42,722 nt of DNA, from NCBI GenBank assembly GCA_039589315.1, contig JBDHHQ010000074.1:1-42722 (forward strand), in the 5' to 3' direction. Below are positions 36,001 through 39,000 of this stretch, in pieces. Position numbers: made by a program. The stretch is from Gemmatimonadota bacterium (lineage in GTDB: Bacteria > Gemmatimonadota > Gemmatimonadetes > Longimicrobiales > Gaopeijiaceae). The stretch's first letter is position 1. The number at the start of each line of letters is the position of its first letter.

Positions 36001-39000
36001 TCACCGGTGGCCATCACCGTCCAACCGGCCGGCACGTCCAGGCTGACCCGGTAGTCGCCAAATCCGTCGTAGAACTCCGCACCGGCCATGTACGGTTCAG
36101 CGTCCCAGCCCCGGAGGTCGTCGAGGACGGCCATCTTCGGGAACCAGTACGCCAGGAAGTACACCTCCCGGTCCGAATGCCCCATCCGGCCTGCCCCGTT
36201 TTGAGGCACGACGAACGTCCAGTCCACCTCGAGCTCCAGCGTGTCGCCCGGTTCGATCTGGTCCGGCGGTCGCACGGCCATGAGGGTGCCGTCCACGGCG
36301 TATCCGGGCCCGTCCGCTAGACTCCCCGCGCTCACGGGCGACCCTGCCACGGTCACGCGTGTCAGCGTAACCCCTCCCGTCACCTCCTGGGCCTCGTTCC
36401 GCACCGCGCCGGGGGCGTGGAGGTTTTGGTAGAGGTTCACGATCACGCCGTTGAGCGTGTGGGGGGATTCGTTCTGCCACTGGATTCGTGCCTGGCCGCT
36501 GATCTGTCCGGTCTCGGGCTCCAGTCGGGCCTCGATCTGGTACCGGGTGTGGGGTTGCCAGTACGTGGGCCCCGGGCGGCCGTCGGCCGTACGCGTGCCC
36601 CGCTGAATCGCCGTGCGGTAGAACGGCGGCGGTACCACCGGTCCGGGGATCGGGCGGTCGGGGGTTACCCCGTTCTGGCCGAGGGCAGGCGTCGGTACCA
36701 ACGTGCCGACGAGGATGGTGGCCGTCACGAAGGCGGGCGCCAGCGGCGGGATGGGGGAGATTCGGCTCACGGTACGGGCTCTCCAGCTCGAGTCCTGAAT
36801 CCACCAGGGGTTGCCACCACCCAGTCACCCCCGGTCGGGTGTGGGCCTCCTTGGACCCGCCCTTTTCTGACAGGTTCCGGTGTGCCCGGCCCCGGGGAAC
36901 CGATCCAGCATCTACCGGGTTGGAGCCGTACAGTGTACTGTTGAAGCCAGGTGCCGGGACGACCCCGGTGTCCGACCCGTCGAAGAACGGACGCGACCTG
37001 TGGATAGCGACATCCGGATGTGTAGCTGTCGGTGTTGTTGCCGGGAGGCCCGAGGGCCTTCCAGGGGTCGCGGTACGGGGTCGGGCGACTAGCCGACATC
37101 CCGGACGCAAACGGCCGATGGCCGCGACCCCGGAGGAAGAGGGGTCGCGGCCGTTTCTTTTGTGGTGGTGGAGAGACCGAAATGCGCGTGATCGCGAGCA
37201 AGGCTGCAGTGGACGAGGCCATCGGCAACACGCCGCTGGTGCCGCTCCGACGGGTTTCACCGAGAGGGGCGGCGCAGGTGTGGGTCAAGGTCGAGGGGTT
37301 GAACCCGGGGGGTAGCGTGAAGGACCGTCCGGCACGAGCCATCCTCCAGGCCGCCGAGGCGGCCGGGCTCATGGGAGACGGTCGTGCCCTCCTGGACGCG
37401 AGCTCGGGCAACACCGGCATTGCCTTCGCCATGCTCTGCGCGGCCCGGGGGTACGACTGCGTCATCTGCTTGCCGGACAACGCGAACGGCGAACGCAAGC
37501 GGCTCCTGGCCATGTACGGCGCGACCGTCGTGCACACGCCTCCGGAGGACGGTTCCGATGGTGCCATCGTAGAGGCTCGAAGAAGGGCCGCCCACGATCC
37601 GGACCGCTACTTCTACGCTGACCAGTACAACAACCCCAACAACGTGCGGGCCCATTACGAAACCACCGGCCCGGAGATCTGGAGGCAGACAGGAGGTCGC
37701 GTCACCCACTTCGTGGTCGGTTTGGGGACGTCCGGTACCTTGATGGGCGTGGGGCGCCGCCTCCGGGAGTTCGACCCGTGGATCCGCGTGATCGCCGTAC
37801 AGCCCGACGCGCCGTTTCACGGGATCGAAGGATGGAAGCACATGCCCACCGCAATCGTGCCGGGTATCTACGATCCGGATTTCGCGGACGAGACGCTCAC
37901 GGTGCGGACCGAAGCCGGCCAGGCAATGGCCCGACGTATCGCCAGGGAGGAGGGCCTTCTCACAGGGTCGTCGGGGGGTGCGAATGTCGTGGCGGCTCTG
38001 AGCGTCGCGAAGAAACTGCCGCCAGGAGACCTGGTCGTGACCGTGCTGCCCGATCGTGGAGAACGATACCAACACGAGCAGTGGTGGAAGGAGTGAGACC
38101 GATGGTCCGGATCGAGGGTTCCGAGCTCAGGGCAATCCTGAGCGAAGCGCAGATGAGTTACCCCGAGGAGTGCTGCGGTGCCCTGCTCGGGCGTGTCGAC
38201 CGCATGGCCGGGCGCAAGGTCGTCCGGGCGGTGCCCATCTTCAACGGCCGCCAGGACGAGCGTCGACGGCGCTACCTGATCGGTCCCGACGAGGTCAGGA
38301 CCGTGGAAGGCGCCGCCGCTCGCGGAGGCCTCGACGTGCTGGGGTTCTACCACTCACACCCCGATCACCCTGCGATTCCGTCGGCCTACGACCGTGACCA
38401 CGCATGGCCCTGGTACACGTACGTGATCGTGCCCGTGAGGGGTGGGGAGCCGGGCGCGCCACGGGCGTGGCGGCTGAAGCAGGACCGCGGGGATTTCGAC
38501 GAAGTACGCCTTCTGCCCAAGGAGCGACAATGACCGTCGTCGTACGGATCCCCACGCCCCTCCGCCCGTTCGCGGGAGGCCAGGCGGAGGTCGCCGTCGG
38601 CGGTGCGACCGTGGGCGAGGCGCTGGATCACCTGGTTGCGGAGAACCCCGATCTGCGGGCGCACCTGTACACCGAGGACGGCAGCCTGCGTAACTTCGTC
38701 AATGCGTACCTGAATCAGGAAGATGTCCGGCACCTCGGTGGGGGCGCGACTCCGGTCCGGAGCGGCGACGAGATCACCATCGTGCCCAGTATCGCCGGGG
38801 GCTCGGGCGCGGCCCCCGCTGCCCTGGAGGACGCGGTGGCCAAAGCGGTCACGCTGTCACACGAAGAGATCCAACGCTACAGCCGGCACCTCATCATGCC
38901 CGAGGTGGGCATGGAGGGGCAGAAGAAGCTGAAGTCGGCCAGCGTGCTCATGATCGGCGCCGGGGGTCTGGGGTCTCCACTCGGGCTCTACCTGGCGGCG

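Follow-up and report, generated by a model that had tools for sequence, protein, structure and literature searches.

A cysteine-codon leader with a predicted terminator–antiterminator switch precedes a CysO-type operon in Gemmatimonadota

How is an operon controlled that may make cysteine on a sulfur carrier protein? Cysteine synthesis is a textbook pathway governed by transcription factors, T-boxes or SAM riboswitches, not by a trp-type leader. A genome-wide survey's note on the Gemmatimonadota genome analysed here (G000) had proposed a cysteine-sensing attenuator upstream of a cysteine synthase operon, on a stretch of DNA of 42,722 nucleotides that we refer to as the window. We found that this reading fits all the tests that we ran. 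The element is very probably a classical trp-type, ribosome-mediated transcription attenuator that would sense charged tRNA-Cys, and it includes an antiterminator, which we propose from the sequence.

Translation of the window bears out the note's 25-codon ORF with five cysteines within its first eight codons. The leader (37018..37092; this and all features below are on the forward strand unless stated otherwise) encodes 24 residues followed by TAG, with cysteine at codons 2, 4, 6, 7 and 8. These putative regulatory codons span 37021..37041, and four of the five are TGT. The leader frame, the cysteine codons and the stop are conserved in a second genome, G001. The Shine–Dalgarno sequence of the leader is weak and there are two candidate starts: because the frame is open upstream, an in-frame GTG at 37000..37002, also present in G001, is the second possible one. 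The divergent neighbour on the reverse strand (34767..36770), M1-aminopeptidase-like by weak pepN/LTA4H matches, lies outside the element.

The intrinsic terminator that the note had placed behind the leader is also there. Folding and the inverted repeat delimit a hairpin of 15 bp (regions 3:4; 37117..37155) with a free energy of −32.8 kcal/mol and a z score of −4.15, and none of 200 shuffled sequences was equally stable. A U tract with T at seven of eight positions, read directly from the sequence (TTTCTTTT, 37154..37161), follows it. A standard promoter and terminator scan, restricted to sigma-70 promoters, detected neither the hairpin nor the promoter motif described below; it missed the hairpin because the 9-nt loop exceeds the 8-nt limit of the scan. 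No RNA holder is listed for this stretch. The U tract ends 20 nt before the start of the cysteine synthase gene, which is too short a distance for a separate operon promoter.

Absent from the earlier note was the antiterminator. Positions 37064..37073 (region 2) are perfectly complementary over 10 nt to positions 37122–37131 in the 5′ arm of the terminator, and would form with them a 10-bp antiterminator that shares this arm with the terminator. When we placed a model ribosome on the leader and folded the RNA 3′ of it, the antiterminator had a probability of 0.92–0.93 with the ribosome on Cys8 and of 0 with the ribosome at codon 16 onward or at the stop; without a ribosome the value was 0.12–0.19. 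In the mechanism that we propose, scarcity of Cys-tRNA would stall the ribosome at codons 2–8, leaving 37064–37073 free to capture the emerging 5′ arm of the terminator, so that polymerase would read through. With plentiful cysteine, the ribosome would instead cover 37064–37073, the terminator would form and transcription would stop near 37161. In the complete transcript at equilibrium the terminator formed in all modelled states, and read-through must therefore be kinetic.

The putative 5′ untranslated region (UTR) complicates this model. A segment at 36988..36998, recognized as an inverted repeat and conserved in G001, pairs with 37066–37072 with a probability of 0.64–0.99 in several modelled states and may serve as an anti-antiterminator. 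Once the 5′ UTR was added to the folding, positions 36992–36998 competed for the antiterminator strand and the contrast of the switch shrank. In the Cys8 state with the 3′ end at 37146, the antiterminator probability was only 0.05, and when the ribosome sat on the stop codon the antiterminator re-formed across the blocked stretch (0.88), in a model that ignores steric hindrance and in which helices spanning the ribosome may be unphysical. Unlike trp-type leaders, the one in the window lacks a clear 1:2 protector inside its ORF and has just the 5′ UTR segment or weak pairings; the leaders that we found in Anaerolineae do have a clear 1:2 protector or pause hairpin.

To place the leader in a wider context, we searched sets of 61, 401 and 401 genomes. 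Within the window's order, 13 genomes yielded 14 operon-type loci. Each of these has a cysteine leader, directly upstream in 13 cases and at the head of the operon in the remaining one. The note had counted a fifth locus, in G032, as an exception with coding sequence directly upstream, a claim that does not hold: the leader there heads a longer run of sulfite reductase, methylase, synthase, JAB and MoeB genes. One leader of the order (L153) has just three cysteines in 11 codons. A hairpin with a U tail is present at 12 of the 14 loci, and L151 and L152 have a hairpin with a poor tail.

These loci bear on a translational alternative, in which stalling would free the Shine–Dalgarno sequence of the synthase and the hairpin would be incidental. 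Polycysteine leaderless short ORFs of mycobacteria, which make up a 'Cys ribulon', act by such occlusion (10.1101/834739; restated in PMC13236596), and in the sections of the literature that we consulted this is the sole mode shown experimentally for cysteine leaders. The two poor U tracts would suit it, as would three loci (L015, L096 and L099) that appear leaderless by promoter spacing, their leader start lying 6–7 nt after the −10 box. In the window, the Shine–Dalgarno-like GGAG of the synthase (37170..37173) lies outside the extent of the terminator hairpin and is not occluded by it, which argues against translational occlusion. So do the U tracts at the other 12 loci of the order and the hairpins that stand 100–300 nt before the gene at some loci. 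We therefore regard translational attenuation as very improbable and favour transcriptional attenuation.

A wider sample, taken from the top 80 of 561 GTDB matches, brought in Acidobacteriota and Anaerolineae, and 112 loci remained after we dropped duplicates and three loci with less than 300 nt upstream. A fixed detector was positive at 36 of these 112 homologous loci, which are kin and not independent, compared with 4 of 1,576 control genes of G000. For nine other two-codon sets it was positive at 0–9 of the 112 loci, leaving cysteine as the sole enriched set. Two loci remain part of the totals (36 here, 38 below): L073, where the detector's frame differs from the likely leader frame, and L139, where the terminator was mis-picked. 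A second Anaerolineae leader type, with five cysteines and a long branched terminator (L103, L117, L135, L138, L139 and L142), mostly went undetected by the fixed detector. In a quick tree without bootstrap, leaders were scattered across the synthase clade, a pattern that does not separate one origin followed by losses from several origins.

The note had described an attenuator of Gemmatimonadota. The element is present in that phylum but is not confined to it, as the Acidobacteriota and Anaerolineae loci demonstrate, and at many Gemmatimonadota loci an Rrf2 gene takes the place of the leader. There was no leader at any of the 20 Rrf2-preceded loci, all of one family, and no Rrf2 gene at any of the 36 detector-positive loci. 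The leader-less Gemmatimonadota loci (L044–L064; L041, L042, L053, L056 and L061), with Rrf2 upstream, often a rhodanese/SseA-like gene as well, and a conserved inverted-repeat-like box in front of the synthase, are probably under repressor control instead. In a hold-out set of Pyrinomonadaceae, 4 of 29 loci had a leader, one of them doubtful, and most were internal genes; extending 13 of these loci upstream produced one additional leader, most operon heads being further upstream.

The leader also occurs before other genes. It precedes some cysK-type genes (L034 and L036), with one convincing case among 30 within 1.5 kb, and it was absent from cysS in all 28 Gemmatimonadota loci. At L026, a terminator hairpin that has neither a cysteine leader nor an Rfam match stands some 50 nt before a cysK-type gene. 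G000 itself has a second cysteine leader (C177:9231; L146:732-890), complete with antiterminator and terminator, before a DUF1684 gene, which suggests a sulfur-related role for the DUF1684 protein; none of six other DUF1684 homologues has a leader. An ECF-type promoter motif like that of the window was seen at this second leader, and the window contains a DUF1684-like match interrupted by a single TAG stop (15721-16575, reverse strand). Of seven leader matches across the whole of G000, we judged five to be chance, some for want of an ATG. Several unpublished genomes entered these counts: G515 (L151, with DNA identical to L068) is among the 14 loci of the order, the 112 loci, and the promoter and tree counts; G037 (L220) is among the 28 cysS negatives; G762, G840 and G743 (L244, L260 and L265) are negatives of the 29-locus hold-out; and G056, G116, G234 and G747 are in genome tallies only. 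No conclusion rests on them.

We then asked whether the switch, and not merely the codons, recurs across loci. An unbiased search of up to 247 nt upstream, for a feature that the detector does not use, placed the best complement of the terminator 5′ arm between 6 nt after the last cysteine codon and 16 nt after the stop at 30 of 38 loci (8.3 expected). Measured against shuffled arms, the complementarity signal was maximal 12 nt after the last cysteine codon. Taken singly, just 12 of the 38 loci had an antiterminator duplex better than shuffles at p ≤ 0.05. Outside Anaerolineae, 15–36 nt separate stop and hairpin at 22 of 24 loci; in the 14 Anaerolineae loci this spacing is 45–75 nt. Among 13 aligned Anaerolineae leaders, two-sided changes were found at 6 of 13 antiterminator pairs and at 6 of 18 pairs of the protector and terminator; such covariation was matched by 0–2 of 500 shuffles and slid controls scored far lower, although these scores are not probabilities, since the structures were derived from the same alignment of related sequences. 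In an alignment of 19 Gemmatimonadota and Acidobacteriota leaders, the terminator covaried at 6 of 9 pairs and no consensus antiterminator was recovered.

These comparisons also speak to a different reading, that the ORF is a stand-alone gene for a cysteine-rich peptide, such as a metal-binding micropeptide or a RiPP precursor, with a constitutive terminator of its own. A cysteine-rich peptide encoded beside an adenylating enzyme and a peptidase (E1 and JAB) would make sense in these terms, as would the dominance of the terminator at equilibrium. Across loci, however, the leader peptides have nothing in common beyond the cysteine run, and leaders of this type stand before unrelated genes (sulfite reductase, cysK-type and DUF1684) and, in Anaerolineae, before synthases without adjacent JAB or MoeB genes. 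The complementarity to the terminator arm sits where an antiterminator would, and a constitutive terminator would leave no space for an operon promoter behind it. We find a peptide gene barely credible and retain the attenuator.

Which signal the ribosome would read is a related matter. The leaders' cysteine codons are strongly biased to TGT (115 of 158, compared with 35 of 198 in the operon genes and 20% genome-wide); stalling would be sharper if UGU is read by wobble, and protector pairing also favours T in these codons. Five Pyrinomonadaceae leaders (L073, L078, L090, L238 and L239) have a run of tyrosine codons, usually a tryptophan codon, and then two cysteine codons; they lie 140–260 nt upstream of the synthase with a good terminator behind. 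The codons of these tyrosine-rich leaders all start with U, and we speculate that this could link sensing to tRNA methylthiolation. The bias and the tyrosine-rich leaders, together with a thiol-stress-type promoter motif upstream, would fit a leader that senses slow UGU decoding, through oxidative, sulfur or Fe–S stress on tRNA modification or charging, or else a ligand- or protein-operated switch, with the ORF in a secondary role. Against this, no Rfam family reached its gathering score at the window leader or at 16 loci, a test that included T-box and SAM riboswitches; no conserved RNA core was found across the phyla; and cysteine codons are the only set enriched. Such signals are improbable compared with the charging of tRNA-Cys, which we take forward.

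The promoter motif came to light post hoc and we offer it as a lead. A candidate ECF promoter of the SigH/SigR type, GGAAC-N18-GTT (36896..36921), has both boxes conserved in G001 and lies about 80–100 nt upstream of the window leader, which would give the transcript its probable 5′ UTR. In mycobacteria, SigH recognizes the consensus GGAAYR-N17-18-GTT and has mec-cysO-cysM and moeZ under its control, according to the part of PMC4803200 used here. Of 20 Gemmatimonadota leader regions picked by hand, 12 contained the GGAAC-N-GTT motif, and it was present at 7 of 12 detector-positive compared with 5 of 31 detector-negative Gemmatimonadota loci, two of the latter five having leaders by eye; its background is close to 1% per 250 nt. 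Elsewhere in G000 the motif stands before msrP, clpX and a TlpA-like gene. The same genome encodes a SigH/SigR-like ECF sigma factor with an RsrA-like zinc anti-sigma factor, both below equivalog cut-offs, behind a GGAAC-N-GTT motif of their own (G000:C15; L226:379-1428).

The genes behind the leader are those that the note had listed. Profile matches identify a CysM-like cysteine synthase of the PALP family, below the NCBIfam cysM and cysK cut-offs (37182..38096). A Mec-like JAB/JAMM peptidase follows (38099..38533; Prok-JAB, E = 8e-25), with an E..HSH..S..D motif in its translation, and then a CysO-like ThiS domain fused to a MoeB/MoeZ-type E1 and a rhodanese (38530..40005; ThiS, ThiF and rhodanese domains). 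Domain search and carrier comparison delimit the ThiS domain at 38530-38802, with an internal Gly-Gly at its end. The label 'CysO-type' is apt for the carrier sequence, the best PDB match of which is, over its full length, M. tuberculosis CysO (3dwg chain C, E = 1.4e-18); it is less apt for the architecture, in which the carrier is part of a fusion and has its Gly-Gly inside the chain. Across 115 loci the carrier was fused in 59, scored as free in 12, cut in 2 and not adjacent in 42. A carrier with a terminal Gly-Gly was not seen among the window's and 73 related carriers, which are fused or short-tailed, and the free carriers with a readable motif bear extra residues after Gly-Gly. An internal Gly-Gly needs processing, and the JAB protein probably matures the carrier besides releasing cysteine.

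In overall sequence the synthase resembles CysK and the enteric CysM more than it does the mycobacterial CysM. Its Lys219, invariant at all 115 loci, aligns with an Arg of both mycobacterial and enteric CysM; the Arg of the mycobacterial enzyme is known as the phosphoserine determinant. No cysE was found above cut-off in five of five genomes, G000 having a partial cysE-like ORF only (C77, L163:2438-2896) and G001 a near-full cysE match below cut-off, and no cysK was found at E ≤ 1e-110 in G000, which is 95% complete. The operon most likely makes cysteine via the CysO route, by analogy with known family members. JAB would expose the carrier's Gly-Gly by cleavage, the MoeB–rhodanese part would thiocarboxylate the carrier, the synthase would add phosphoserine to it, and JAB would then set cysteine free. 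The sole tRNA-Cys call in G000 (C18:55313-55400, 88 nt, ACA anticodon) we judged from its sequence, which resembles coding sequence, to be a false positive; the true tRNA-Cys gene is probably unassembled.

Set beside known systems, the leader combines familiar parts in an unfamiliar place. As in the trp, his, phe, thr, leu and ilv leaders, a run of cognate codons and mutually exclusive antiterminator and U-tailed terminator precede a biosynthetic operon; here the cognate amino acid is cysteine and the phyla are ones not reported in the literature that we searched. Attenuation has reportedly been surveyed comparatively by Lopatovskaya and colleagues in 2010. With the mycobacterial 'Cys ribulon' the leader would share cysteine-codon stalling in a short ORF, sulfur or cysteine operons as targets and several loci per genome; it differs in having a terminator and antiterminator, an unoccluded ribosome-binding site and a probable 5′ UTR (10.1101/834739, in the sections available). 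The same 2020 study notes there that no uORF attenuation for cysteine had been described before, and demonstrates the translational form.

Other precedents are cited here from the relevant passages. Before Rhodobacterales cysS, the predicted uORFC-8-2 motif pairs a cysteine-codon uORF with a U-tailed terminator (PMC8632094); it has two tandem cysteine codons, mostly UGC, before a tRNA synthetase gene in one order, whereas the leaders described here have three to seven, mostly UGU, before biosynthesis genes in three phyla. The predicted actinobacterial cys/cbs leaders have cysteine runs before cysteine synthesis genes but no conserved terminator hairpins, and Rho-dependent termination was suggested for them (PMC1262725, as excerpted). 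A leader containing cysteine and methionine codons lies upstream of S. lividans metNIQ (PMC8079986, same limitation). The chemistry of Mec, CysO, CysM and MoeZ has been described (PMC3227635), and the window has the same four activities by family, with CysO as the nearest solved carrier and a SigH-type promoter motif shared with the M. tuberculosis mec-cysO-cysM operon (PMC3227635 and PMC4803200, in the parts cited). Unlike the M. tuberculosis pathway, the carrier is fused to MoeB–rhodanese in the 59 loci or bears extra residues, and the synthase has Lys in place of Arg. The main texts of the ncRNA and attenuator discovery studies that we consulted held no relevant cysteine passage, and the element was unreported for these phyla in the literature searched, which comprised main texts of mostly open papers; supplements may list such leaders. 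Cysteine leaders have precedent; what we did not find in print is a leader with both terminator and antiterminator that precedes a CysO-type pathway across three phyla.

A broader scheme can be imagined, which we hold to be possible but rather unlikely: a transcriptional 'cysteine ribulon' of three phyla, in which attenuators gate the processed CysO–MoeZ fusion and other sulfur genes and replace Rrf2 in lineages where this locus lacks it. In Gemmatimonadota it would form an AND gate, the SigH/SigR-type thiol-stress promoter reporting oxidation and the leader reporting cysteine shortage, and the tyrosine-rich Pyrinomonadaceae variant would add sulfur-dependent tRNA modification. More immediately, a terminator–antiterminator form across Gemmatimonadota, Acidobacteriota and Chloroflexota would close a gap in what is described of cysteine attenuation. 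The leader gives regulatory support for a cysteine-making role of an operon listed, in the portion of PMC1779556 consulted, as the uncharacterised subtype 4c, and it may serve as a marker for sulfur genes, DUF1684 among them, in abundant uncultured bacteria of soils and sediments.
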